A DNA stretch of 61,779 bases from Candidatus Curtissbacteria bacterium (lineage in GTDB: Bacteria > Patescibacteriota > Microgenomatia > Curtissbacterales > GWA2-41-24), in contig JAUSJC010000004.1 in NCBI GenBank assembly GCA_030647775.1, forward strand, positions 1 through 61,779, written 5' to 3'. Position 1 is the first letter of the stretch, and each line of letters starts with the position of its first letter. This document shows, piece by piece, positions 1 through 38,763 of this stretch. Both the position numbers and the translations under genes were made by a program. The notes under the pieces are model-generated. The model ran no database searches, was not told the origin of the DNA, and worked only from the letters and a program-made list of their open reading frames with translations.

Positions 1-516
1 CTTAATTCTTCCCGCAACTTCCTCCGAGTTAGCGATAAAATAATCTACTTTTTGCGCGGCCTTAAAATCATACAGCCGCATGAAATGTCCGACAATTGCC
101 GCGTAAGCTTTTACCAGCGGATATTTTTGGAAATTAACCGAAGTTGCATATCCATAAAGCCATCTCGGCGGCGTGTGGCAATAGCAAATTTCAATCGCCT
201 TACCCTTTTTCTTAAAGCCTTTTGTCACATACCAGCTGGAAGACGAAACAATAACGTCGTAGCCGGAAAAATCAAAACTGTTCCAGATAAATGGAGCTAG
301 AAATCGGAGCGGACTGTGAAGATAAGTCGTAAAAAACGGCACTTTCTGCGCCCATGAAGTTATAATTTTGCGGTTTTTAAACCTTTCATATGCCACGCCT
401 TCGCGGTAAAACGCAGTATAGATTGGCGCCTTCGGCCAAATCTCGCAAAGCGCTTTGAGTACCCGCTCTGCTCCGCCAAATTCCCCAAGGTAATCATGTA
501 CTAATGCTACTTTCAT
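1..516 (-). CDS. Glycosyltransferase family 4, N-terminal part (partial, runs off the left edge)
   Basis: Reverse translation from ATG at 516-514 gives MKVALVHDYLGEFGGAERVLKALCEIWPKAPIYTAFY..., a typical GT4 N-terminus. It stays open to position 1. The ATG overlaps the upstream stop (TAATG). Confidence 0.6.
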   Translation of the reverse strand, partial: MKVALVHDYLGEFGGAERVLKALCEIWPKAPIYTAFYREGVAYERFKNRKIITSWAQKVPFFTTYLHSPLRFLAPFIWNSFDFSGYDVIVSSSSWYVTKGFKKKGKAIEICYCHTPPRWLYGYATSVNFQKYPLVKAYAAIVGHFMRLYDFKAAQKVDYFIANSEEVAGRIK

Positions 517-1538
517 TAAATTAATTCTAGTTGGTTTTTATCGTCACTTGGTGCCTTATTATTAGTGCCTTTTACTTCATCTACTTTTGCTCCTGGTAAT
601 TTATTCAAAATCGATTTAAATCCTAAGCTTTCAAATTCCCTTCTCACTTTTTCCCAATCCGGTTTGTACTCAAGTTTGGTAATATCCAAATCTATATGCA
701 CATCGCGATCCAGTTCGACCAATTTCGCAGCCGCCATGGCCAGCTCTTTCCCTGCCAAAAGTTTATCTTTTGTTGATCCCAAAATATCATCGATGTGTCT
801 ATATATTTCTTCAACGCTTCCGTATTTTTGAAGCAGGCTGCTTGCGGTTTTTGGCCCGATCCCGGCAACACCCGGCACATTGTCCGAAACGTCTCCAACC
901 AGTGATTTATAATCAACCATCTGCTCGGGCGTCACTCCGTATTTTTCCCTTACTTCCGCCGCCCCAAACAAGGTTGTCGTTGCCAAACCTGCCTTGCCGG
1001 CAGGCAGGTTCCACCCCGGCATCTGCACTTTAATCGCCCCATCAACCAACTGCAAACAATCCCTATCGCCAGACAAAATTACTACCTCTACTTTGTCATT
1101 GCGAGGAATCGTAGACGACGAAGCAATCCCTTTTCCAGATTGCTTCGCTTCGCTCGCAATGACAAGAGTGGTTATAGCTTTACTGGCTATCGTCGCCAAA
1201 ATATCGTCTGCCTCATATCCCGCTTTTTCAAAATACGGCACGCCAAAAGCATCCAGTACTTTTTTGACTTTGGGCAGTTGCGGGTAAAGATCCGGCGGCG
1301 GTGCCGGCCTCTGCGCTTTATATTTTTCAAATTCGATATGGCGAAATGTCGGTGCGGCCGTATCAAAAGCGCAGGCAACATAATCCGGTTCTACTTCGGA
1401 AACTGCTTTCAATAGCATATTAGAAAACCCGTAAACCGCGTTGGCATTTTCTCCGCTTTTGTCGGTTAAAGGCGGCAGCGCGTGATAAGCACGATGGAAA
1501 AGGTTATTACCATCGATTAAAAGGAGTTTTTTGGCCAT
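516..1538 (-). CDS. 5'-3' exonuclease (Pol I N-terminal / FEN-like domain protein)
   Basis: LLIDGNNLFHRAYHA, GYEADD, SDNVPGVAGIGPKTA (H3TH) motifs. Carries two extra segments relative to Taq Pol I N-domain spacing as recalled. Confidence 0.85.
   Translation of the reverse strand: MAKKLLLIDGNNLFHRAYHALPPLTDKSGENANAVYGFSNMLLKAVSEVEPDYVACAFDTAAPTFRHIEFEKYKAQRPAPPPDLYPQLPKVKKVLDAFGVPYFEKAGYEADDILATIASKAITTLVIASEAKQSGKGIASSSTIPRNDKVEVVILSGDRDCLQLVDGAIKVQMPGWNLPAGKAGLATTTLFGAAEVREKYGVTPEQMVDYKSLVGDVSDNVPGVAGIGPKTASSLLQKYGSVEEIYRHIDDILGSTKDKLLAGKELAMAAAKLVELDRDVHIDLDITKLEYKPDWEKVRREFESLGFKSILNKLPGAKVDEVKGTNNKAPSDDKNQLELI
986..1010. repeat. GC-rich palindrome aacctgccttgccggcaggcaggtt inside the exonuclease ORF
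   Basis: Near-perfect inverted repeat. Encodes NLPAGKAGL, extra relative to Pol I spacing. Same core as the trpS copy at 4542-4561. Confidence 0.6.
1095..1163. repeat. Family A palindromic element (TIR GTCATTGCGAG...CTCGCAATGAC), in frame in the exonuclease gene
   Basis: 69 nt = 23 codons (VIASEAKQSGKGIASSSTIPRND). Same termini as the copies at 7031, 32090 and 35193. Confidence 0.8.
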
Positions 1539-6320: not shown

Positions 6321-6557
6321 TATTTTTCGAGCTTGTCGAGAAAAACAAGCTCTCTTATATCAGCATCGTAAACATTTCTGTGCCAGCGACAGGAATCGAA
6401 CCTGTGACCTTAGCGTTATGAGTGCTACGCTCTAACCGACTGAGCTACGCTGGCTTATTAATGTCTACGATCTGATATAGGTCAGCAAAAGCTGACGTAT
6501 ACAACAGAGGGCAAAGCCCTGCTGTTATATATCAGATTCGCCGAAGACGAAGGCTCA
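6321..6557 (-). other. Intervening sequence 2 (237 nt) at anticodon-loop position 37/38, containing a whole tRNA gene
   Basis: Bounded by CTCATA| and |A-CGCCA. Contains tRNA 6381-6454 flanked by about 20-nt inverted repeats, plus a second ATATCAG-type element (6472-6535). Confidence 0.5.
6381..6454 (-). tRNA. tRNA-Met(CAU), elongator-like (Ile2/lysidine type not excluded)
   Basis: GCCAGCG TA GCTC AGTCGGTTA GAGC G TAGCA CTCATAA CGCTA AGGTC ACAGG TTCGATT CCTGT CGCTGGC A. Confidence 0.85.
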
Positions 6558-6910: not shown

Positions 6911-6981
6911 TAGCGGGGGCGGGAGTCGAACCCACTTCTGGAGATTATGAGCCTCCCGAGATACCGTTTCTCCACCCCGCG
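6911..6981 (-). tRNA. tRNA(CAU), initiator-like
   Basis: CGCGGGG TG GAGA AACGGTA TCTC G GGAGG CTCATAA TCTCC AGAA GTGGG TTCGACT CCCGC CCCCGCT A. It has a C1xU72 mismatch and A11:U24, but lacks the full GGG/CCC anticodon stem. Confidence 0.8.
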
Positions 6982-7030
6982 ATGTGGAGTGAATTTTAAC
7001 AAAATTAAGCTTTGGAATCAACCCCTACAT

Positions 7031-7155
7031 GTCATTGCGAACGCAGCGAGCAATAAGCTCTCTTATTGCGAGAACCCGCTACAACTTCCTTAGATGTTGG
7101 CGGGGACGAAGCAATCCCTTCTTAAGATTGCCACGCCCTTTGGGCTCGCAATGAC
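7031..7155. repeat. Family A palindromic element (125 nt), intergenic
   Basis: gtcattgcga...ctcgcaatgac termini. Contains the 14-bp palindrome ATAAGCTCTCTTAT. Confidence 0.7.
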
Positions 7156-7165
7156 AAGTGATGCA

Positions 7166-7513: not shown

Positions 7514-7564
7514 AACATATACATTATAATTGACATGAACTATATTTTGAGCAGAGCGAAAAAT

Positions 7565-7619
7565 ATATCAGAGGAGCGCCATCGGCAGGACGAAGTCTGC
7601 CGAGGCGACCTGCTGATAT
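7565..7619. repeat. Family E element (ATATCAG AGGAGCGCC ... GGCGACCTG CTGATAT), copy 1
   Basis: 55-nt nested hairpin. Near-identical arms at 19087-19135 and 45735-45787. Confidence 0.7.
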
Positions 7620-7689: not shown

Positions 7690-8565
7690 ATGAAAAGATT
7701 AGATGAGGCTCATAAAGAATTTGTAGAACATTTAAGAGGCAAAAAGCGCGCCTCGGCAACCGTTTTGGCCTATGGTAAAGATATCCAGCAATTGGTGCAG
7801 TTTTTAAACGACCTTAAAAAGGCCGACGTTACAGAAGTTGCCGCCGAAGATATCCGCACATTTTTGGCAAAACTCGAAAAAGAAGGCTACACCCAAAAAT
7901 CAATTTCCCGGAAGCTAAATTCCACCAAAACTTTCTTCCGCTTTCTAAAAGTCCAGGAGCTCATCACCGACGACCCGGCAACACTAGTCGACCATCCAAA
8001 GTTTGACACCAAACCGCCGCGCATCTTGTCCCCTATTGAATACAGGGCACTAAGAGATGCGGCCCGCGATGACGCCAGAATCGCCGCCGTTATCGAGATT
8101 CTTTTGCAAACCGGAATCAGGATTGGCGAACTGGCCAACATTAGAACCGATGATGTTTACGAAAGTGTTGGGCAAAAAGAGGGTTCCTTATTTATAAGGT
8201 CACAAGAAAACCGTGGTGAACGAACCGTTCCTTTAAATAAAGCCGCCGAAACGGCCCTTAAAAGATATCTGGAAGTTCGCCCAAAAACTGCCAACAAGGC
8301 CCTGTTTGTCACCAAAACCGGCCGTCCGCTTCTCGTTCGAAACATCAGGACCGCTATCGACCGTTATTACAAAAGGGCCGGTATTAGCGGCGCCAAGGTT
8401 AACGACCTAAGGCACACTTGGGTCGCCCATCACCTTACTGCCGGAACATCACTGGTTTTGATTTCCAAAATCGCCGGCCACAAGCGCCTTTCCACTACGG
8501 AACGTTACTTAACACTGATCACTACTCCAAAAGGCGAGGAGAAGGTAAAGTTAGAAGAACTTTAA
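7690..8565 (+). CDS. Tyrosine recombinase (XerC/XerD family)
   Basis: N-terminal SAM-like domain. Catalytic residues in context: ...RIGEL, LRHTWVAHHL, GHKRLSTTERY. Confidence 0.85.
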   Translation: MKRLDEAHKEFVEHLRGKKRASATVLAYGKDIQQLVQFLNDLKKADVTEVAAEDIRTFLAKLEKEGYTQKSISRKLNSTKTFFRFLKVQELITDDPATLVDHPKFDTKPPRILSPIEYRALRDAARDDARIAAVIEILLQTGIRIGELANIRTDDVYESVGQKEGSLFIRSQENRGERTVPLNKAAETALKRYLEVRPKTANKALFVTKTGRPLLVRNIRTAIDRYYKRAGISGAKVNDLRHTWVAHHLTAGTSLVLISKIAGHKRLSTTERYLTLITTPKGEEKVKLEEL

Positions 8566-10473: not shown

Positions 10474-10983
10474 ATGGAAATAGCAAAACAGTTTGGCATT
10501 GAACCAATTCTGCTCTTGGCGCAAATCATCAATTTTTTGGTTATCCTTTTTGTGCTCAAAAAGTTCTTTTATAAACCCCTCGTCAAGATGCTGGCGGACC
10601 GCAAGGCAAGAATCGCCGAAAGTCTCCGCAATGCCGACACCATAGAAGGAAAACTAAAAGCAACCGAAGAAAAATCGGCGCTTGTTTTAGATACTGCCAG
10701 GAAAAACGCCGAAGACATTCTGACTGACGCCAAAGCCGAAGCCCAAAGAATCGCCGACGCCGCCGGCCAAGAAGCTAAAACGGCAACAGAGCAAACCCTG
10801 AAAAAAGCCATGGAGCAAATTCAATCTGAACGGGAAAAAATGCAAAAAGATCTGGAACAAGAAACTCTCGATTTAGTCACAGCAACAGTCAAAAAAGTTT
10901 TAGGCAGGAATTTAAGAGACGTGGAGAAAAAATCTTTAACTGCCAAATCAATTGCCGATATAACTCGGAAGATGTCATCCTGA
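10474..10983 (+). CDS. atpF: F0F1 ATP synthase subunit b
   Basis: N-terminal TM plus a long charged helix, with the expected operon position. The last codons and stop (ATG TCA TCC TGA) lie in a family B element. Confidence 0.8.
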   Translation: MEIAKQFGIEPILLLAQIINFLVILFVLKKFFYKPLVKMLADRKARIAESLRNADTIEGKLKATEEKSALVLDTARKNAEDILTDAKAEAQRIADAAGQEAKTATEQTLKKAMEQIQSEREKMQKDLEQETLDLVTATVKKVLGRNLRDVEKKSLTAKSIADITRKMSS

Positions 10984-11095
10984 ACAATGTCATCCTGAAC
11001 TCGATTCAGGATCTGTAACTGATTCAGGATCTAATCTAAACGGATTCCGAAATATACAGGGCCATGCGACCTAAAGGTCTAAAGTTCGGAATGAC
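10974..11095. repeat. Composite palindromic elements (family B GTCATCCTGAAC-type plus a GTCATTCCGAAC-type unit)
   Basis: gtcatcctgaac appears twice, gattcaggatc appears twice, followed by the inverted copy of the 34679-34731 element. Confidence 0.7.
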
Positions 11096-11108
11096 AACAG
11101 GGGAATAA

Positions 11109-11547: not shown

Positions 11548-13116
11548 ATGAGTATCCTGGAAAATATCGAAAAACAAATAGATAAGGCGAAATTCACCTC
11601 GATCCCAAAAAACGTCGGCAAAATCATTGAAATTGGCGACGGTGTCGCTCGCGTTTCCGGCCTCTCCGATGTTTCTGCCTCGGAAATTGTCACTTTCCCC
11701 CTCCGGACCAGAGGCCCCTCTGGGCCAGCGGCTCACGGCATCACCGGCCTTGCGCTAAATTTGGAAGAAGACAGTGTCGGCGTCATCATTTTTGGTGATT
11801 GGGCAAAACTTAAAGAAGGCGATGAAGTCCAAACTACCGGAAGAATCCTGGAAATTCCTGTCGGTGATGCTCTTATAGGCAGGGTTGTCGATGCTCTTGG
11901 CAAACCGGTTGACGGCAAAGGGCCCATCAAGGCAACCACGCACTACCCGGCCGAAAAAATTGCCCCCGGCGTCATCTTTCGCCAACCCGTTAATGTGCCT
12001 TTGCAAACCGGTATCAAAGCCATCGATTCTATGATTCCTATTGGCCGCGGCCAAAGGGAACTTATAATCGGCGACCGCGGCCTTGGTAAAACCGCCATTT
12101 GTCTGGATACCATCATTAACCAAAAAGGCAAAAAAGTTATTTGTATTTATGTCGCCATCGGCCAAAAAACCAGCAAAATTGCCCAGGTTGTCGCCATTCT
12201 GGAAAAACACAAAGCCCTGGACCACACCATCGTTGTGGCCGCATCCGCTTCCGATTCGGCTAGCCAGCAGTATGTTGCCCCCTACGCCGGCTGCGCTATC
12301 GGAGAATATTTTATGGACCAGGGGAAAGACGCCTTGGTCATCTATGACGATTTGACCAAACACGCCTGGGCTTACCGCCAGATTTCTCTTCTTCTTAAAC
12401 GTCCTTCCGGCCGCGAAGCTTACCCTGGTGACGTTTTCTACCTTCATTCCCGTCTGTTGGAACGCGCGGCCCGTCTTGACGAAAAACACGGCGGCGGCTC
12501 CCTAACCGCTCTTCCGATTATCGAAACCCAAGCCGGTGATGTTTCCGCCTACATTCCCACTAATGTTATTTCCATTACCGACGGCCAAATCTTCTTGGAA
12601 GCCGATCTTTTCAACGCCGGCAACCGCCCGGCCATCAATGCCGGCATTTCCGTTTCCCGGGTTGGCGGCAATGCCCAAACAAAAATGATGAAAAAAGTCG
12701 CCGGCGGCCTCCGCTTAGACCTTGCCCAGTACAGGTCTCTGGCCGCCTTTACCCAGTTTGGTTCCGACCTTGATGCCACAACTCTGGCAAAACTCGAGCG
12801 CGGTAAAAGAATCGTCGAAATTTTAAAGCAGCCCCAATACCAACCAATTGATATTACTGCTCAAACCGTTATCTTCTGGTCTGCGGCAAACGGATACTTC
12901 GATTCTATTGCGGTCACCGAAGTTTCTAGGTTTGAAGAGCGGATTATTTCTGCTCTTGCCACCAACAAAAAACTAAAAGATCATCTGGACGACAAAAAAG
13001 AACTCGACGATTTTGCCGTCAAAGAACTCGAAAAGATGCTTTCTTCCCTTTCCGGCAAAATGCCCAAAGTCGAAACTCAAGAGAAACCAAAAAGGAGGTC
13101 AAAAACAAAAAAATAA
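11548..13116 (+). CDS. atpA: F0F1 ATP synthase subunit alpha
   Basis: GDRGLGKT Walker A, full-length alpha architecture. About 10 extra residues before [10 protein letters not shown]. Confidence 0.95.
11699..11732. repeat. 34-nt hairpin element ccctccggaccagaggcccctctgggccagcggc inside atpA
   Basis: Identical except for 1 nt to 27970-28003. Encodes [12 protein letters not shown] here. Confidence 0.75.
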
Positions 13117-14322: not shown

Positions 14323-15843
<1,521 letters not shown>

Positions 15844-19086: not shown

Positions 19087-19135
19087 ATATCAGCAGGTCG
19101 CCTCAGCATAAATGCTGATGGCGCTCCTCTGATAT
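19087..19135. repeat. Family E element, copy 2 (inside the interrupted tRNA)
   Basis: ATATCAG AGGAGCGCC ATCAGCATTTATGCTGA GGCGACCTG CTGATAT, read on the minus strand. Confidence 0.7.
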
Positions 19136-19148
19136 ATAAGGGCAAGTG

Positions 19149-19220
19149 TGGGCCTGGTAGGTATCGAACCTACGACATCCACCTTATAAGAGTGGCGCTC
19201 TACCACTGAGCTACAGGCCC
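19149..19220 (-). tRNA. tRNA-Ile(UAU)
   Basis: GGGCCTG TA GCTC AGTGGTA GAGC G CCACT CTTATAA GGTGG ATGTC GTAGG TTCGATA CCTAC CAGGCCC A. The body is Ile-like. Confidence 0.85.
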
Positions 19221-27819: not shown

Positions 27820-29130
27820 TTAATTTACAAGCTGATTCAAATCAAAATTCGTATCCGCAAGCTTATCGACCAAAAAAGAAACATCAACTTTGCCCTTAAC
27901 CGCGGCCGTTAGTGGCGCAACCTCCCCGGCACTATTAATAACCGTTGCCCCGACAATTCTTTTGGTGTTGCCCTCCGGGCCAGAGGCCCCTCTGGGCCAG
28001 CGGCCAATCGTTTTAATATAAATTTGCGTCATCTTGCCGGACTCTACCGATCCGCGGCTAATTACTTCGTCAGCAAACGCCATGTCTGTTACCCCGATGA
28101 AAGAATATGTCCCTTCAAAAAAACTGTCGGAGTAAGACGACGCCGTCTCGTAAATAGTCCTCTCGCCAACCATCCCTTTTGCCGCCGCCTGCCCCTGCGA
28201 CGTTGCATTTGCCCAATTCCCCATCATATGTTGTCTTCCAAAAATCACGTCGGCAAATTCGGCACAATCCCCAGCGGCATAGACATCTTTCACATTCGTC
28301 TCTAAGTATTCGTTGGTTAAAATTCCGCGGTTTGTCTTGACCCCCGCCTTGGCAATCCATTCCAAATCCACCTTGATACCTATACCGACACCCACAACAC
28401 CACATTCAAAGCGTTTGCCGGATTTGGTAACTACAGTAGCCACTTTATTGTTTAGGGTCGGACCCTTGAACAGGGTCCGACCCTGTTCAAATTCGAATCT
28501 CTCCACTTCTTCCCCGGTTAAAACTTTAACTCCGTTTTTTGCTAGAACACTTACCATCACCTTACTTGAATCAGGACCTAGTCTATTCGCCCAAAAGTAC
28601 GGCTCTTTTACCAAAATCGTTACTTCCCCAACATTATTCGCCTTAAAACAGGTGGCAAAATCAAGGCTAATAAGCCCGCCGCCGACAATTACCCCGGCTT
28701 TGGCAGAACTTGCCGCCTTGATAACCTTGTCTGTATCTTCCAAAGTTCTGAAATATAAAATGTTCTCAAGCTGGCTGCCCGCCGCATCAAGCCGGATTAC
28801 CCTTCCGCCAATGGAGATAAGCAACTTGCCGTATTGAATCTCTTCCCCGTCAGAAAGAGTAATCAAATGATCAGCACAATTCAGCCCGGTGGCTTTGGTT
28901 TTTTTAAGAAGCTCGATGTTCTTTTGCTTGTACCAGTCGGGAGTTTTTAGAAAAACCTGTTCCCTTTTTATTTTGTTTCGGCTGTAAAATGGCAGTAAAA
29001 CCCGCGAATACTCCTCTTCTTCGTCTGTAACAATTGTGATTGAACCCTCACCATTGCGTGACCGGATCACTTCTGCTGCCGTTGTCCCGGCCGCGCTTCC
29101 GCCAACAATTAAATAGTCAACATTCCTCAT
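27820..29130 (-). CDS. FAD/NAD(P)-dependent pyridine nucleotide-disulfide oxidoreductase family (ferredoxin-reductase-like)
   Basis: DYLIVGGSAAG and VIVGGGLISLD dinucleotide folds, AAGDCAEF. No redox Cys in the Nox/CoADR position (SRVLLPFY). Confidence 0.8.
   Translation of the reverse strand: MRNVDYLIVGGSAAGTTAAEVIRSRNGEGSITIVTDEEEEYSRVLLPFYSRNKIKREQVFLKTPDWYKQKNIELLKKTKATGLNCADHLITLSDGEEIQYGKLLISIGGRVIRLDAAGSQLENILYFRTLEDTDKVIKAASSAKAGVIVGGGLISLDFATCFKANNVGEVTILVKEPYFWANRLGPDSSKVMVSVLAKNGVKVLTGEEVERFEFEQGRTLFKGPTLNNKVATVVTKSGKRFECGVVGVGIGIKVDLEWIAKAGVKTNRGILTNEYLETNVKDVYAAGDCAEFADVIFGRQHMMGNWANATSQGQAAAKGMVGERTIYETASSYSDSFFEGTYSFIGVTDMAFADEVISRGSVESGKMTQIYIKTIGRWPRGASGPEGNTKRIVGATVINSAGEVAPLTAAVKGKVDVSFLVDKLADTNFDLNQLVN
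27970..28003. repeat. 34-nt hairpin element ccctccgggccagaggcccctctgggccagcggc inside the oxidoreductase gene
   Basis: Same element as 11699-11732 and same plus-strand orientation, but the host gene is on the other strand. Encodes [12 protein letters not shown]. Confidence 0.75.
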
Positions 29131-30733: not shown

Positions 30734-32077
30734 TTAAATTCGAATTCTCCTTCCATTATTGTGACTATATTCGGATACATTCGGACTAACAATTCGGGTC
30801 AATTTGGGTTTAAATATGGAAATTACTTTTTCTATACCCGCAATGAATTTATCGACTTCTTCTTTTGTGTTGTAAATATAAAAACTGACGCGGGCCGCCG
30901 ACTCTATCCCCAAAAAATTCATAAGGGGTTGGGCGCAGTGGTGGCCGGACCTTATCGCAATTCCCTCCGCATCCAGAATCGATGCCACGTCGTGGGCATG
31001 GATTGGACCAACGTTAAAAGATATAACACCCGCTCTATTTGTCATCCCGAACTCGTTTCGGGATCTAGATTCTGAATCAAGTTCAGAATGACGAGGTAGG
31101 GGTCCATAAATCTCCACTTCCGGGATTGCTGACAATTTCTTGATTGCGTATCGAGTCAACTCAACTTCATGTTCTCTCACCTTATCCATTCCGATTTTCT
31201 CCAAATATTCTACTGCCGCCATAAGCCCCACTGCCGCCGCCGCATCGGGAGTCCCCGCTTCAAATTTCCAAGGCAACTCATTCCAACTGGTTCCACTAAG
31301 AGAAACTTTAGAAATCATGTCTCCCCCAAATAAAAACGGCGGCATTTTCTCCAAAAGCTCCCTTCTTCCCCACAAAACTCCAATCCCTGTTGGCCCCAGC
31401 ATTTTATGCCCCGTAAAAACGTAGAAATCGCAGCCTATTTTGGCAATATCAACTTTCATATGCGGCACAGCTTGCGCTCCATCAACAATAACTACCGCTT
31501 TTGGTGATAGTCGATGAGCGATAGTCGATAGTCGTCTAACATCATTGACCGTCCCCAAAACATTCGAAACATGGAAAAAGGAGACCAGTTTCGTCCGAGA
31601 TGTAATTGCCTTCTTAAATGCTACTGGATCAACCTCCCCGTTTTCATCAACCGGCACCACTTTCAAAACCGCGCCGTTTTCGCGAGCCAGCTGCTGCCAA
31701 ACCACAAAGTTGGAGTGATGTTCGGCAACCGTAACTACAATCTCATCATTTTTGGAAATATTGTTTCTTCCCCAGCTATAAGCAATAAGATTTAAGGCTT
31801 CTGTCGCGTTTTTTACAAAGATTATCTCACCCGTATCTTTCACCCCCACAAAATTTCCGACAACTTTTCTTGCCAGTTCATACTCTTCAGTTGCTTCCTG
31901 AGAAAGTGTATGGACTCCGCGGTGAACATTGGCGTTATGTTTGGTGTAATAGTGCACCAGCATATCCAAAACCGCCTTGGGTTTCTGGCTCGTCGCCGCA
32001 TTATCAAGATAAACCAATGGTTTCCCATTTATTTTCCTACTTAAGATTGGAAAATCTTGCCTAATTTTGTCCATCAT
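30734..32077 (-). CDS. sufS: Cysteine desulfurase SufS
   Basis: HHSN, FTGHKMLGPTGIG (PLP Lys), RSGHHCAQP active-site Cys. Has a repeat-derived insert and a C-terminal tail. Confidence 0.9.
   Translation of the reverse strand: MMDKIRQDFPILSRKINGKPLVYLDNAATSQKPKAVLDMLVHYYTKHNANVHRGVHTLSQEATEEYELARKVVGNFVGVKDTGEIIFVKNATEALNLIAYSWGRNNISKNDEIVVTVAEHHSNFVVWQQLARENGAVLKVVPVDENGEVDPVAFKKAITSRTKLVSFFHVSNVLGTVNDVRRLSTIAHRLSPKAVVIVDGAQAVPHMKVDIAKIGCDFYVFTGHKMLGPTGIGVLWGRRELLEKMPPFLFGGDMISKVSLSGTSWNELPWKFEAGTPDAAAAVGLMAAVEYLEKIGMDKVREHEVELTRYAIKKLSAIPEVEIYGPLPRHSELDSESRSRNEFGMTNRAGVISFNVGPIHAHDVASILDAEGIAIRSGHHCAQPLMNFLGIESAARVSFYIYNTKEEVDKFIAGIEKVISIFKPKLTRIVSPNVSEYSHNNGRRIRI
31041..31092. repeat. Family B double hairpin inside sufS
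   Basis: gtcatcccgaactcgtttcgggatc + tagattctgaatcaagttcagaatgac. Encodes RHSELDSESRSRNEFGMT. Confidence 0.65.
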
Positions 32078-32089
32078 ATATTTTTAGTT

Positions 32090-32173
32090 GTCATTGCGAG
32101 CGAGTGAAACGAGCGCGGCAATCTCTTTTTAGATTGCTTCGTCATTCTGCAATGCAGAACTCCTCGCAATGAC
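32090..32173. repeat. Family A element between sufD and sufS
   Basis: gtcattgcgagcgag...cctcgcaatgac, with an internal gtcattctgcaatgcagaa hairpin. Confidence 0.7.
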
Positions 32174-32205
32174 GTAACGCATTGGGTCGATAAAACCCTC
32201 AATTA

Positions 32206-32925
32206 TCATTCTTCTTGCCCCTCGTAGCTCTCCTTTGGAGAGCGAAGTGGGGTCTGCTCCATTATTTTCTCCCTCATCGGCCCGATAAACCCCTGAATGA
32301 TTAACTTTTCTGCGCTATCCCTCGAAAGCCCCCTGCTCATCAAATAAAAAATCATTTCTTCATCCACCTTTCCAATTGTCGCCGCGTGTCCGGCTTTAAC
32401 ATCCGGCTCCAAAATCTCCAACGCCGGGGTATCGTCTCCCATTTTGGCATCGTCAAAAAGCAAAGCGTCAGATCTTAAATACGCATCTGCTCCTTTAGCC
32501 CCTTTTTCAATTTTGACGTTCCCCTTGAACGCAAAAGTCGACTTGCCCCGTAAAACCGCGCGGACATTCACATTCGATTTCGTGTTCGGCGCCGCGTGGG
32601 TTATATAAATCTCGAGTGATCGATCATCGACCTTTCCTTTATCCGCCAAAGATCGCTCTTTGGCACGTGTTCGAATAGAACCTGAAGTGCCAAAGTAAGA
32701 TCGGGCGGGCAAAACCAACCCCACAACCTCCACACTAGAATTTTCCCCCGCCAAAACCACTTCCACTCTGTCATTCTGCAATCCGCTAACCCTGTCATTC
32801 TGGAGCGAAGCGATAGAATCTTTACGTCCAGATCCTATCGGTCGTTTCACTCCCTCCAGGACGACACTTGAGTTATCCATCAGCACCGTTATCACCCTTT
32901 TCTCGTCTTTTTTTAAAGTAATCAT
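32206..32925 (-). CDS. sufD: SufD-like Fe-S assembly protein (short form)
   Basis: C-terminal beta-helix region. [21 protein letters not shown] parallels Suf[22 protein letters not shown]. Confidence 0.7.
   Translation of the reverse strand: MITLKKDEKRVITVLMDNSSVVLEGVKRPIGSGRKDSIASLQNDRVSGLQNDRVEVVLAGENSSVEVVGLVLPARSYFGTSGSIRTRAKERSLADKGKVDDRSLEIYITHAAPNTKSNVNVRAVLRGKSTFAFKGNVKIEKGAKGADAYLRSDALLFDDAKMGDDTPALEILEPDVKAGHAATIGKVDEEMIFYLMSRGLSRDSAEKLIIQGFIGPMREKIMEQTPLRSPKESYEGQEE
32769..32835. repeat. Family B-like element inside sufD
   Basis: gtcattctgcaat...gtcattctggagcgaagcgatagaatc encodes DSIASLQNDRVSGLQNDRV. Confidence 0.55.
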
Positions 32926-33221: not shown

Positions 33222-34609
33222 CCTACTGATCCCTCCATGTTTAGCTGAATCAATCGATTCAGTTCCACCGCATATTCCAGGGGTAATTCTTTAACAATCG
33301 GCTCGATAAAACCGTTGACGATTAAAGACGTTGCTTCCATTTCGGTTAGACCTCTGCTCATCAGATAAAAAAGTTTTTCCGCATCAATTCGCGAAACGCT
33401 TGCCTCGTGCCCAATCGTCACATCATCTTCGCTAACCTGCATTGTCGGGTAAGTGTCGCTTCGGGATTTTTCATCCAAAATCAAAGCGTCACAGCGCACA
33501 TTACACTTCACACCTTTTGCATTCTTAATAACTTTAACAAGTCCTCTATAACTTGTCCTTCCGCCAAAGGCACTTACCGATTTGGAAATAATCTCGCCGC
33601 TTGTCTCCGGGGCCAAAAACACCAGCTTTCCGCCGGCGTCCTGATGTTGTCCTGCTCCGGCAAATGCCAAAGACAACACTTCTCCCCGCGCTTTCCTGCC
33701 AACCAAATAACAACTCGGATATTTCATGGTGATTTTGCTCCCCAAATTACCATCTACCCACTCCATAGTCCCTTCTTCTTCCACAAACGCCCGCTTAGTG
33801 ACCAAATTGTAAACGTTGTTGGACCAATTCTGGATTGTGGTATAGCGGCAACGCGCGCCCTTTTTAACAAAAATCTCAACAACCGCGCTGTGCAGTGAAT
33901 CTGTCGAATAAACCGGCGCCGTGCAGCCTTCGACATAATGGATATATGCCCCTTCGTCCACAATTATCAGCGTTCTTTCAAACTGCCCCATGTTGGCCGC
34001 ATTTATCCTAAAATAAGCTTGCAAAGGAATATCGACAGAAACTCCCGGCGGCACATAGATAAAAGACCCACCGGACCAAACCGCGGAGTTTAGTGCCGCA
34101 AATTTATTGTCCGCAGCCGGAATGCTTTTGCCGAAATAACTTTTGACAAGTTCCGGGTATTTTTTCAAACCCGTATCCATATCCGTAAAAATTACGCCCA
34201 TGTCTTCCCATTTCTTTTGGAAAGAATGATAAACAGATTCACTTTCATACTGCGCCGTCACCCCCGCCAAATACTTCTTTTCCGCTTCCGGAATGCCAAT
34301 CGCGTCATAAGTATCTTTGATGTCTTTTGGTAAATCGGCCCACGAAGTTTTCTGTTTATCCGTTGGCTTTATGTAGTAAAAAATATTGTCAAAGTCAATG
34401 TCCGTTAGGTCTGCTCCCCAAACCGGCATCTTCTTTGCCAAAAAAATATCGTGCGCTTTTAGCCTCAAATCCCGCATCCACTGCGGCTCGCTCTTCATCG
34501 CCGAAATTTGCTCCACAACCGACCGGTTCAATCCGCGTCGGGATTTAAAAACATAATTCTCCGGTTTGGAAAATCCATATTGGTAATCGGTTGTTTGTAA
34601 ATTGTTCAT
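33218..34609 (-). CDS. sufB: Fe-S cluster assembly protein SufB
   Basis: Full-length SufB signature blocks (FYYIKP, YFRINA, EGCTAP, TIQNWS, KYPSCYL). Confidence 0.95.
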
Positions 34610-34678
34610 AATTAAACTTCTCGATTCGTTTCACTCACTCGAAGAATATTGTTCGAGCGCAGTCGAGAACTACTTCTT

Positions 34679-34791
34679 GTCATTCCGAACCCTAGACCTT
34701 TAGGTCGCATGGCACTGTATATTTCGGAATCTAGATCCTGAATCAAGCCTTCGAGGCCGTGAGCCCTCAGGCCGAATCGGTTCAGGATGAC
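34679..34791. repeat. GTCATTCCGAAC-type element plus a family B element, overlapping the sufC stop
   Basis: 34679-34731 matches the inverted 11043-11095. 34734-34791 is the inverted near-copy of 35235-35292. Confidence 0.7.
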
Positions 34792-35669
34792 ATAGTAGTA
34801 AATGCCCCGTATCCTTTCTCTTCAACCTTTTGCGCTAAACCCGCTTTGCCGGATTTAATAATCTGCCCGTCTACCATCACATGCACAAAATCCGGCTTTA
34901 GATATTTAAGGATACGGGCGTAGTGAGTTATAAGTATGATTGATGATTGTCGATTGTTGATTGTAAATTGTTTAATCGCAGAAGCAACTAATTTTAAACC
35001 ATCAACGTCCAAACCAGAATCAATCTCATCCAAAATCACTAGTTTCGGTTTCAAAGCCATCATCTGCAAAATCTCATTTCGCTTTTTTTCTCCACCGGAA
35101 AATCCCTCATTGAGTGAACGTCTTAAAAAGTCCTCCGGAAGTTTAAGTTCCGACATATACTTTTTGAGTTCGTCACGGAATTGCTTAGCACTGTCATTGC
35201 GAGGAGTCACAAACGACGAAGCAATCCCGCCATCGTCATCCTGAACCGATTCGGCCTGAGGGCTCACGGCCTCGAAGGCTTGATTCAGGATCTGTTTCCC
35301 CGTTTTGAGATTGCTTCTCCGTCGATTGACGGCTCGCAATGACAATAGGGAGTTTGACGTTTTCGCTTTTCTAAGAAAATTAAAAACCGAAACTCCCGGA
35401 ACTTCCACCGGGTGCTGGAATCCCAAAAAAATTCCCAATTTCGCCCGCTTATCCGGCGCTAACTTTGTAATGTCCTGACTATTCACTATGCATTTTCCAC
35501 TAACCACTTTATAATTCGGGTGCCCCGCGATAACCTGCGCCAAAGTCGACTTTCCGCTTCCATTCGGCCCCATGAGCACGTGAATCTGGCCACTACCAAC
35601 TTCCAGATCCACGCCCTTCAAGATTTCTTTATCACTGACACTTGCTTTAAGATTCTTAATCTTTAGCAT
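34782..35669 (-). CDS. sufC: Fe-S cluster assembly ATPase SufC
   Basis: GPNGSGKST, FSGGEKKRNEILQ, LDEIDSGLD, THY. Start placed at MLKIKNL after a GGAGG. About 50 extra residues in the helical subdomain. Confidence 0.9.
   Translation of the reverse strand: MLKIKNLKASVSDKEILKGVDLEVGSGQIHVLMGPNGSGKSTLAQVIAGHPNYKVVSGKCIVNSQDITKLAPDKRAKLGIFLGFQHPVEVPGVSVFNFLRKAKTSNSLLSLRAVNRRRSNLKTGKQILNQAFEAVSPQAESVQDDDGGIASSFVTPRNDSAKQFRDELKKYMSELKLPEDFLRRSLNEGFSGGEKKRNEILQMMALKPKLVILDEIDSGLDVDGLKLVASAIKQFTINNRQSSIILITHYARILKYLKPDFVHVMVDGQIIKSGKAGLAQKVEEKGYGAFTTMSS
35193..35343. repeat. Nested insertion inside sufC: family A element carrying a family B element (35235-35292)
   Basis: gtcattgcgagg...[gtcatcctgaac...gattcaggatc]...gctcgcaatgac. 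Translated through as SLRAVNRRRSNL...GGIASSFVTPRND. Confidence 0.8.
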
Positions 35670-35730
35670 CTTCCTCCACTTCGCATTGGCAGTCTTTGCA
35701 GCATCCACATTTGCATTCGCATTTTTTCAT
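35656..35730 (-). CDS. Cysteine-rich 24-aa micro-ORF (MKKCECKCGCCKDCQCEVEEDAKD) overlapping the sufC start
   Basis: ATG lies 3 nt after GGGAGGTGA. 7 Cys in 24 residues. Its stop overlaps sufC codons 1-5 in another frame. Confidence 0.4.
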   Translation of the reverse strand: MKKCECKCGCCKDCQCEVEEDAKD

Positions 35731-37843: not shown

Positions 37844-38192
37844 AAAAACCCGCTTGCCGAGAGAATAAGCTCTCTTTTTCTCGACCTGATCGAGAATCCA
37901 TACATAGATCCTGAATCAAGTTCAGGATGACATTACTTCTCGCTTCACTCGAAGAATACTATTATATCCTTTATTTGAAATATTGTTTTCATTTTATGAA
38001 ACGTCTTAAATTCATTTAAAATTAAAAACTAAAAATTTCAAATTTTTGGAAAATTTTGTCGGTGTATAAAATATTTACCCGGATTTCAGCCTTTTTCGAG
38101 CAAAAATAGATCACTATTGACGGGTTTCAGTACGCCCGTCATAAAATGTTCGTCGTCTAGACCCGCAATCGAGTTTACTCGATGAGGATCGC

Positions 38193-38471: not shown

Positions 38472-38763
38472 GGGAAAGATCCCGCCGCCATTAGTATTCT
38501 TCGAGCGAAGCGAGAAGTTCTCACTATCGTTCGAACATTAACAAGAAAATAGAATTTTCACCCGTCTGAATTTTTGACAAACAAAAATTTGGTCGGGTAA
38601 ACAGAAGCCGATCGCGTTTGACGTCGGCTTTTGTTTTGGAAAAAAACTACAATATAACTATGAATCAAGAACATTCTCTGCATTGTATTCAACACAGGTG
38701 TTCGGATCCCATCTAGAACTTACGATATCGGAAATTATATCTTAAATCGGTTAAAATAAGATT

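Follow-up and report, generated by a model that had tools for sequence, protein, structure and literature searches.

A nest of palindromic repeats lying in frame within the sufC gene of a Candidate Phyla Radiation bacterium

The stretch of DNA analysed here, 61,779 nucleotides (nt) of contig JAUSJC010000004.1 from a Candidatus Curtissbacteria bacterium (hereafter the window), carries sufC, the gene of an iron-sulfur (Fe-S) assembly ATPase, and within this gene lies a palindromic segment of 153 nt. We consider it probable that this segment is a nest of non-autonomous hairpin repeats, similar to repetitive extragenic palindromic (REP) sequences and Rickettsia palindromic elements (RPEs), that it became fixed in frame in a SufC loop which is hypervariable and permissive, and that translation is most likely, the segment being tolerated rather than functional. 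The host resembles the Candidate Phyla Radiation (CPR) by its best protein matches, and the named matches of its SufC belong to Candidatus Curtissbacteria or other Patescibacteria.

The composite insert in SufC

The segment has the ends TGTCATTGCGAG...CTCGCAATGACA and folds into one hairpin with internal nesting, at -67.8 kcal/mol (z = -5.75) as RNA and with z = -5.67 as DNA. The gene and the layers of the insert are as follows.

34782-35669, minus strand: sufC coding sequence, 295 amino acids (aa) from the ATG at 35669, with the stop codon TGA at 34782-34784.
35192-35344, unstranded: composite palindromic insert (family A dimer holding family B), 153 nt or 51 codons, SufC residues ~109-160, (L)SLRAVNRRRSNLKTGKQILNQAFEAVSPQAESVQDDDGGIASSFVTPRND(S).
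35192-35234, unstranded: family A arm on the low-coordinate side (TGTCATTGCGAGGAGTCACAAACGACGAAGCAATCC plus spacer), 89% identical over 37 nt to the family A copy at 1094-1130.
35294-35344, unstranded: family A arm on the high-coordinate side (spacer plus GATTGCTTCTCCGTCGATTGACGGCTCGCAATGACA), pairing with 35192-35234 in the predicted folds.
35235-35293, plus strand: long form of family B (B-long), sitting in the loop of A, with the sequence GTC-ATCCTGAA-C[core]TTGA-TTCAGGAT-CT, SufC residues ~126-145.
35246-35279, plus strand: innermost core CCGATTCGGCCTGAGGGCTCACGGCCTCGAAGGC in the apical loop of B, 34 nt, with a second copy at 34747-34780.
34733-34791, minus strand: second, inverted B-long copy, supplying the last sufC codons and the TGA (ATG TCA TCC TGA, that is M S S stop).

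The basic unit of these repeats consists of YGTC, an 8-bp stem beginning with AT, a 5-nt loop and a C(T/C)N tail. Family A is a dimer of two units with their tags outside ('HH' in the terms of PMC3733652) and a spacer, and the palindrome has 12-nt terminal inverted repeats. Family B also occurs in a short form (B-short), GTC-ATCCTGAA-C(T/C...)GA-TTCAGGAT-CT, with an 8-bp stem and the 5-nt loop CTCGA or CTTGA, at 10989-11014 and 37906-37932; comparison with these short units indicates that B-long is B-short plus 33 nt in the apical loop. The segment is therefore a three-layer nest, with the core in the 5-nt apical loop of B and B in the spacer or loop of A. Two exact copies of the core are present in the window, where none is expected, and the two B-long copies that hold them are complementary at 59 of 59 positions and 443 nt apart, which suggests that they are recent. 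The terminus of the high-coordinate arm is one of seven family A terminus matches in the window: GTCATTGCGAGG, allowing at most one mismatch, was expected 0.18 times and was equalled in none of 100 shuffles, and the seven matches are the termini of four A copies (1094-1164, 7030-7156, 32089-32174 and 35192-35344).

The initial annotation had recognised an element within an element, an architecture to which the core adds a third layer. Its family A element is real, with limits (35193-35343) that fell one base short at each end, and its family B element (35235-35292), said to have an inverted near-copy 450 bp away at 34734-34791, is indeed nested and repeated on the sufC stop codon, the repeat being exact and the spans and distance those given above. 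It had also proposed that the open reading frame (ORF) reads straight through with about 50 added residues, in agreement with the 51 codons found here and with a two-block alignment to Escherichia coli SufC. In that alignment, structures of E. coli and Thermus SufC match the protein at E ~1e-70 (3e-70 for PDB 2d3w/5awf), residues 1-103 corresponding to E. coli 1-103 and residues 163-291 to E. coli 119-245, and the insert lies in the unaligned stretch between the blocks. It begins where alpha3, a helix of the helical subdomain, has just ended, between the Q-loop and the ABC signature. Degradation of the rest of the gene, raised earlier as a possibility, was not observed: the ATPase motifs (Walker A, Q-loop Gln, FSGGEKKR signature, Walker B, H-loop) are all kept and are invariant in the alignment, and the TIGR01978 profile matches with 315.3 bits against a cutoff of 212.8 (E 2.3e-94).

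We compared the distance from Q-loop to signature in 78 measured SufC loci of GTDB representative genomes from many phyla, a sample that returned only three close relatives. This distance was 168-189 nt in 71 of the 78 loci and is 315 nt in the present sufC. At the protein level, the interval PGVS..EDFL measures 92 residues in the present SufC against 48 in that of E. coli; it takes up 39-42 in the shortest CPR orthologues and ranges over 39-99 among the 120 closest homologues, and SufC without the 51 codons has the length of those shortest orthologues. An empty site is found in L002/P0014 and in other CPR SufC orthologues of 241-243 aa, and L002 holds no palindrome. The nearest SufC in the protein database is 75% identical overall and 84% identical in aligned regions. 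The closest relative is L001, which is syntenic with 66-92% protein identity. Its left junction, ...CTATT/GTCATTGCGAGG, is identical, and behind it lies a 57-nt insert made of an A-type unit and a different short unit, tags outside, 96 nt (a multiple of three) shorter than that of the window. Because L001 is an independent assembly, the shared left junction supports the authenticity of the A junction; it also shows that an insert at this site predates the split from the closest known relative, and the same probably holds for the A insertion itself. Judged by these comparisons of sequence, the 153-nt segment is an insertion into SufC, as first annotated, and not a segment common to unrelated lineages. 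Two other readings, that the region is a target of a diversity-generating retroelement or a native lineage-specific loop, were ruled out by its palindromic structure, its copies elsewhere and the unrelated inserts in orthologues.

This case is not as singular as the initial annotation had taken it to be, since the same loop carries repeats across the clade and other housekeeping genes of the window hold in-frame repeats as well. At the DNA level, GTCAT-tagged palindromes occur within a few codons of the site in L003, L004, L102, L103 and L104; those of L003 (72 nt, in the opposite orientation), L103 and L104 belong to family A, and those of L004 and L102 are other tags-outside dimers. A different long palindrome family occupies the loop in L105, L007 and L005, and a palindrome of this type (~110-130 nt), with the translation GPVSGFPPASARS...LRAVGSPSTAAT, is present in the loop of about 20 CPR SufC homologues. 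To these DNA-level data we added a count of five-residue words, taken from six-frame translations of the window elements with the two sufC copies left out and scored in 119 SufC homologues: 35 repeat-derived words fell in 2524 loop positions versus 2 in 28707 positions elsewhere in SufC. A protein-database search with the 50-residue insert itself gave no match, as none of the candidates had three 5-residue words in common with it, and carries no information on how widely the insert is distributed. On these data the loop between alpha3 and alpha4 is a clade-wide insertion hot spot, hit independently in at least five other lineages.

The reading frame provides the main argument that the insert is translated. 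The 153-nt composite contains stop codons in five of its six frames, and the sixth is the frame that sufC uses; a dimer in sufS, described below, is open in one of six frames, again the used one, and a copy in an exonuclease gene uses one of four open frames. Such constraint argues for translation of these segments, because removal from the mRNA or bypass by the ribosome would not demand it. The insert is most likely translated as a flexible surface extension of ~51 residues, and its retention predicts the junction-spanning peptide ...TGKQILNQAFEAVSPQAESVQDDDGGIASSFVTPR.

An AlphaFold2 (AF2) model of SufC, built from a 56-sequence alignment, has a mean predicted local distance difference test (pLDDT) score of 83.6, with values below 50 at residues 128-156 and averages of 40-73 in ten-residue blocks over residues 101-160. 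The modelled core agrees with chains 5awf_C and 2zu0_C of the SufBC2D and SufC2D2 crystal structures at a target-normalised template modelling (TM) score of 0.91, and helix alpha3 is predicted, with modest confidence, to lengthen into the first part of the insert. The modelled fold is thus normal for SufC, and the loop predicted at the insert, where a surface loop had been anticipated, is of low confidence. The hypervariability of this loop in the 120 homologues, the confident core and the low pLDDT of the insert together make the site fold-compatible, by prediction only. Helix alpha3 contacts SufB and SufD (PMC6006206), and the insert, beginning immediately after this helix, would therefore lie next to, and not within, the described contact elements.

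Repeat families in the window and in other genomes

The elements nested in sufC belong to families that recur through the window, both within genes and between them. Their other copies, together with a separate GC-rich repeat, are listed here.

1094-1164, unstranded: family A copy in a 5'-3' exonuclease gene (516-1538, minus strand), in frame, VIASEAKQSGKGIASSSTIPRND.
31041-31092, unstranded: tags-outside dimer of two short GTCAT units in sufS (30734-32077, minus strand), in frame, RHSELDSESRSRNEFGMT.
32089-32174, unstranded: intergenic family A copy, one arm of which contains a small nested unit; it separates sufS from the sufD-like gene.
7030-7156, unstranded: family A-like copy of 127 nt, intergenic.
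10973-11098, unstranded: one C unit clustered with two B units, the first unit of the cluster giving the atpF stop codon.
34677-34731, plus strand: family C unit (GTC-ATTCCGAA-31-nt loop-TTCGGAAT-CT), 95% complementary to 11043-11097.
34620-34676, unstranded: hairpin repeat of the CTTCTCG...CGAGAA type, filling the rest of the sufC-sufB spacer, with related copies at 37935-37961 and 38492-38518.
37906-37934, minus strand: B-short unit, intergenic, upstream of trxB.
11699-11732: GC-rich 34-nt hairpin CCCTCCGGNCCAGAGGCCCCTCTGGGCCAGCGGC in AtpA, in frame.
27971-28004: hairpin CCCTCCGGNCCAGAGGCCCCTCTGGGCCAGCGGC, 97% identical and in the opposite orientation, in an oxidoreductase gene (27820-29130), in frame.

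Tags of the GTCAT type number 21 in the window, in eight loci, against 2.0 expected, and their density (0.34/kb) is close to that of related CPR loci (0.25/kb) and about tenfold that of the SufC loci of other phyla (0.03/kb). In the genuine window units GTC is invariant and is preceded by T in 14 of 17 and by C in 3 of 17; the corresponding counts in related loci are 25 and 14. The stems are ATCCTGAA/TTCAGGAT, ATCCCGAA/TTCGGGAT, ATTCTGAA/TTCAGAAT and ATTCCGAA/TTCGGAAT, family A units having ATTGC/GCAAT only. Short units have the loops CTCGA, CTTGA, CTCGT or CTTGG, while the loops of B-long, C and A are enlarged by further DNA, and the tails are mostly CTA or CTG, otherwise CCC, with CCA seen once, in L102. 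Tags-outside dimers comprise 31041-31092, 34677-34791 (in which the family C unit is joined to B at ATCT/AGAT), the family A copies, and the inserts of L001, L004 and L102. Another palindrome family, ATATCAG...CTGATAT, occurs at 7563-7619, 19087-19137 and 6470-6537; two mutually complementary copies flank a segment of ~11.5 kb that adjoins the tRNA genes at 6381-6454, 6911-6981 and 19149-19220 and contains the ATP synthase operon and, at 7690-8565, a gene for an XerC/D-like recombinase.

Several genes besides sufC have acquired residues or stop codons at such repeats. The 5'-3' exonuclease, of DNA polymerase I (Pol I) type, has 29 residues at its family A copy where Taq Pol I has five (~24 extra). 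The dimer in SufS corresponds to a 17-residue gap in the alignment with the PDB structure 8d8s and is absent from the L001 orthologue, which is 81% identical. The GC-rich hairpin in AtpA and the oxidoreductase forms a repeat family separate from the GTCAT-tagged ones. Like sufC, atpF (10474-10983, ATP synthase b subunit) takes its stop codon from a GTCATCCTGA unit at its end (10972-10983) and reads ...RKMSS-stop there; SufC here ends ...TTMSS-stop, and orthologues that lack the B copy end ...GYA[VL]WQ[TM][VE]-stop. We also observed in atpD a GC-rich, partly hairpin-forming insertion of ~29 residues (14488-14580) in the N-terminal beta-barrel of ATP synthase beta, a domain of 98 residues against 69 positions in the Pfam profile. 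Relative to L001, lineage-specific in-frame hairpins lie at 28450-28485 (z -7.9), 32644-32709 (z -5.0) and 32209-32244 (z -3.2), in the oxidoreductase and the sufD-like gene, the last of them forming the C-terminus of the sufD-like gene product.

On the minus strand the suf genes run in the order Rrf2 regulator-sufC-sufB (33.2-36.4 kb), followed by a small ORF, a sufD-like gene, sufS and sufU. The spacer between sufC and sufB (34610-34781, 172 nt) consists entirely of three hairpin repeats, and in relatives sufC abuts or overlaps the next gene. Taken mechanically, the sufC ORF extends to an upstream GTG at 35708. A 24-codon Cys-rich ORF, MKKCECKCGCCKDCQCEVEEDAKD (8 Cys, 35656-35730, minus strand), preceded by a strong Shine-Dalgarno-like AGGGAGGTGA, overlaps the sufC start by 14 nt in another frame and could be coupled to sufC as the gene of a leader peptide or of a metallothionein-like micro-protein; an unrelated 66-aa ORF stands at its position in L001 and L002.

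The innermost core is not confined to this host. The central 27-mer of the core was found in 17 metagenome contigs, mostly from groundwater, each time inside the loop of a different host hairpin, and the left flank CCGATTC, which lay outside the query, is conserved with it in all 17. The host contexts are CTGAA/core/TTTCAG, with various stems, or CTGAG/core/TCGAAGG. The core is open in four of six frames, and all four are seen in use: it lies in frame within the Pfam-covered span of IMPDH (L090:28-1257) and of the anticodon-binding domain of a class I tRNA synthetase (L093:1-861), and in frame between the Pfam domains of a Mur ligase (L088:7680-8987) and of a CCA-adding enzyme (L098:3145-4689), in the last of which it is again nested among other GTCAT units. 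The 27-mer was not found in IMG/VR viral contigs, which thus gave no sign of a phage vehicle. Contigs L086 and L100 have the core flanked by a tRNA 3' end on one side and by a partial duplicate of a tRNA 3' end on the other, an arrangement typical of an integration site.

We tentatively propose a wider model, which we regard as possible and still doubtful, whereby CPR/Microgenomates genomes would harbour active, lineage-spanning YGTC-tagged hairpin micro-elements, among them a frame-neutral 33-nt unit (11 codons) that apparently homes to the apical loops of existing hairpins, so that insertion upon insertion would give core proteins extensions, nested and translated, within their variable loops (SufC, SufS and the exonuclease of Pol I type here; Mur ligase, IMPDH, class I tRNA synthetase and CCA-adding enzyme elsewhere). 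If this model is true, the 33-nt core would be among the smallest units that behave as mobile DNA, and the micro-elements would contribute, on a major and unrecognised scale, to protein-length variation and to spurious annotation in CPR genomes. The loop-resident core also offers a handle on the spread of REP-like repeats that have no known transposase, and the alpha3-alpha4 loop of SufC offers a naturally permissive insertion site. For annotation, the protein lengths, alignments, phylogenies and structure predictions of CPR bacteria will hold repeat-derived loops; peptides such as VIASEAKQS..PRND, SLRGAKRRSNL and QAFEAVSPQAESVQ would be translated repeats and not protein motifs; and gene callers may split or extend genes at repeats, two genes of the window taking their stop codon from one.

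Weighing the explanations

The explanation that we favour, fixation of a nest of hairpin repeats in a tolerant loop of SufC, can be put as a sequence of steps. The units would spread through a single-strand hairpin intermediate, with either a trans-supplied enzyme or the replication or repair of the host at work; apical loops exposed on hairpins would be preferred targets, and nesting would follow; and purifying selection on an indispensable gene would leave those insertions that keep the frame, bring in no stop codon and fall in tolerant loops. Such a filter accounts for the independent insertions in the same SufC loop in many lineages, and because the loop sequence is not conserved among orthologues, the insert appears to be tolerated rather than selected for. 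The indispensability of sufC to the host is assumed here.

Several points weigh against this explanation. Taken singly, family A (94 nt) and B-long (59 nt) would each shift the frame, neither length being divisible by three, so that insertion en bloc, compensating indels or different true boundaries are needed; frame-neutral intermediates do exist, in the 57-nt state of L001 and in the 33-nt core. Neither a target-site duplication nor a precise excision footprint was definable from the junctions compared, and no mobilising enzyme was identified among the ORFs of the window, some 60 of which include no transposase domain (Y1_Tnp among those sought), the sole recombinase being the XerC/D-like protein; no insertion sequence (IS) element was found in the 62-kb window either. 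We infer translation from the constraint on frame and stop codons and from comparative data, and the orthologues drawn from the protein database are biased to intact ORFs. The nested B copy is seen in this assembly alone, and the AF2 model is silent on interference of the loop with the docking of SufB or SufD beside alpha3.

It is unlikely, in our judgement, that the insert has been exapted, either through its two B copies, which would pair as a 59-bp duplex closing the 3' 443 nt of sufC and would act as an RNase III-like substrate or a translational brake tuning sufC and sufB, or through its loop as a new protein interaction surface. Long perfect double-stranded RNA is a substrate of RNase III. 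In the minimum free energy fold of the 761-nt 3' segment of sufC all 59 B positions pair with those of the other copy (duplex -129.8 kcal/mol versus -22.7 and -23.5 for the local hairpins); the make-up of the sufC-sufB spacer, all hairpins, and the keeping, by two lineages, of an A-type insert whose left junction is the same also speak for exaptation. However, the long-range duplex would be opposed by local folding during transcription and by ribosomes at work on the message, the B pair occurs in this contig alone, and the insert is of low predicted order in a loop whose sequence is unconserved and whose repeats vary among orthologues in family, orientation and length. As a speculation, the inverted B pair might also act as DNA and mediate inversion of the 3' half of sufC. 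We give very little weight to a removal of the insert before the mature protein is formed, through RNA processing or splicing, ribosomal bypassing or protein splicing, which would leave a canonical SufC. The great stability of the insert hairpin, and the indirect way in which translation is deduced, would fit such a process, but the openness of the frame in three of three intragenic GTCAT-tagged window copies and in four core copies elsewhere is not what removal would demand, and 153 nt is far below the size of any known intron or intein. Rfam gave zero matches at E<=1 in 34550-35450 and matched only three tRNAs across the whole window, and an intron or ribozyme was rejected on this ground.

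The two remaining explanations question the integrity of the assembly or of the gene. An assembly artefact, in which repeats gave rise to a chimera that put the whole element, or its B copy, into sufC, deserves thought in a metagenome contig rich in short repeats with an exact 59-nt inverted duplicate 443 nt away; we nevertheless hold it to be slightly less probable again than removal, since both A arms flank B in register and the whole element occupies the sole open frame, an A-type unit stands at the identical junction in the independent L001 assembly, other contigs, such as L098, contain similar nests, and an inversion between the B copies would destroy sufC, which is intact. Least probable of all is that the insert has inactivated or crippled sufC, now a young pseudogene, with Fe-S assembly provided by another copy or by the host of the bacterium. 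CPR bacteria are reduced symbionts, and the insert is large and adjoins a helix that contacts SufB and SufD; against inactivation, however, stand the intact ORF, ATPase motifs and operon context (Rrf2-sufC-sufB-sufD-like-sufS-sufU), the profile score well over its cutoff, the fact that insertions at this SufC site are the rule and not the exception in the clade, and the presence of an A-type insert, with the left junction unchanged, in a relative whose identity in the aligned SufC regions is only 84%.

Comparison with known repeat systems

Our searches found no description of palindromic, REP or MITE (miniature inverted-repeat transposable element) families in CPR or Patescibacteria and none of the present sequences or peptides (only unrelated nucleotide-string matches), in a searchable literature that is itself incomplete. 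The likeness to RPEs suggested by the initial annotation is apt. As far as PMC10969869 relates the work of Ogata et al. (2000, 2002), both RPEs and the SufC elements are multi-copy palindromes that lie in frame in unrelated housekeeping genes as well as between genes, and both add tens of residues at fold-compatible positions; RPE-1 is reported to be retained in mRNA and protein, as cited in PMC3733652. Set beside RPEs by description only, the present elements differ in their CPR/Microgenomates host and in forming a three-level nest of small units instead of a single element of ~100-150 bp. Strict membership of the SufC elements among RPEs is unlikely, because the host is CPR-like by its best matches.

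A second comparison is with the CGTC-tagged REP superfamily, which includes Neisseria dRS3 and the Rickettsia elements RPE-4 and RPE-6 (Di Nocera et al. 2013, PMC3733652) and whose description the short window units fit. Both have an unpaired tag ending in GTC, stems of 8-9 bp that start with complementary A,T, loops of 4-5 nt and a short unpaired tail, occur mostly as 'HH' dimers that can fold as one long hairpin, and include intragenic copies, one of them in a Pol I-type gene, without an associated transposase. In contrast to the consensus CGTC tag and CCA tail of that superfamily, the window units have mostly TGTC tags and CTA or CTG tails, and many of their enlarged loops hold elements; CPR bacteria are absent from the phyla listed in that survey. 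REP doublets forming hairpins (REPINs), the partners of REP-associated tyrosine transposases (RAYTs; Bertels & Rainey 2011, PMC3116915), resemble family A in consisting of two inverted units and a spacer, in being non-autonomous and in forming populations within a genome. However, REPINs carry a GTAG tag, are essentially extragenic and go with a single-copy RAYT, whereas the window units carry YGTC-AT, have intragenic copies and are accompanied by no RAYT in 62 kb. MITEs such as ERIC, BOX and the Coxiella QMITE (PMC10969869, PMC5896051) are likewise small, non-autonomous inverted repeats found occasionally in frame in genes, but they are defined by IS-related terminal inverted repeats and target-site duplications, neither of which could be shown for the window elements.

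Nesting and in-frame location each have precedents. IS1397 and ISKpn1 insert into REP loops. Dimers of GTAG-15, GTAG-23 and CGTC-1 occur inside longer palindromes (PMC3733652), and the SufC nest resembles these in having one repeat in the centre of another palindrome; unlike them, the inserted piece is here only 33 nt, is found in the apical loops of many host hairpins and lies inside coding sequence. Intragenic GTAG and CGTC REPs encode 20-82 residues, and RPEs and Coxiella MITEs also include in-frame repeats (PMC10969869, PMC3733652, PMC5896051). The SufC nest is best described as an RPE-like or intragenic-REP-like element in CPR bacteria. With it, the range of 'coding palindromes', for which Rickettsia and a few other bacteria have so far provided most of the records, extends to the Candidate Phyla Radiation, where they occur at high density in core genes of Fe-S assembly and DNA repair; other hairpin repeats lie in frame in genes of ATP synthase and of redox function.

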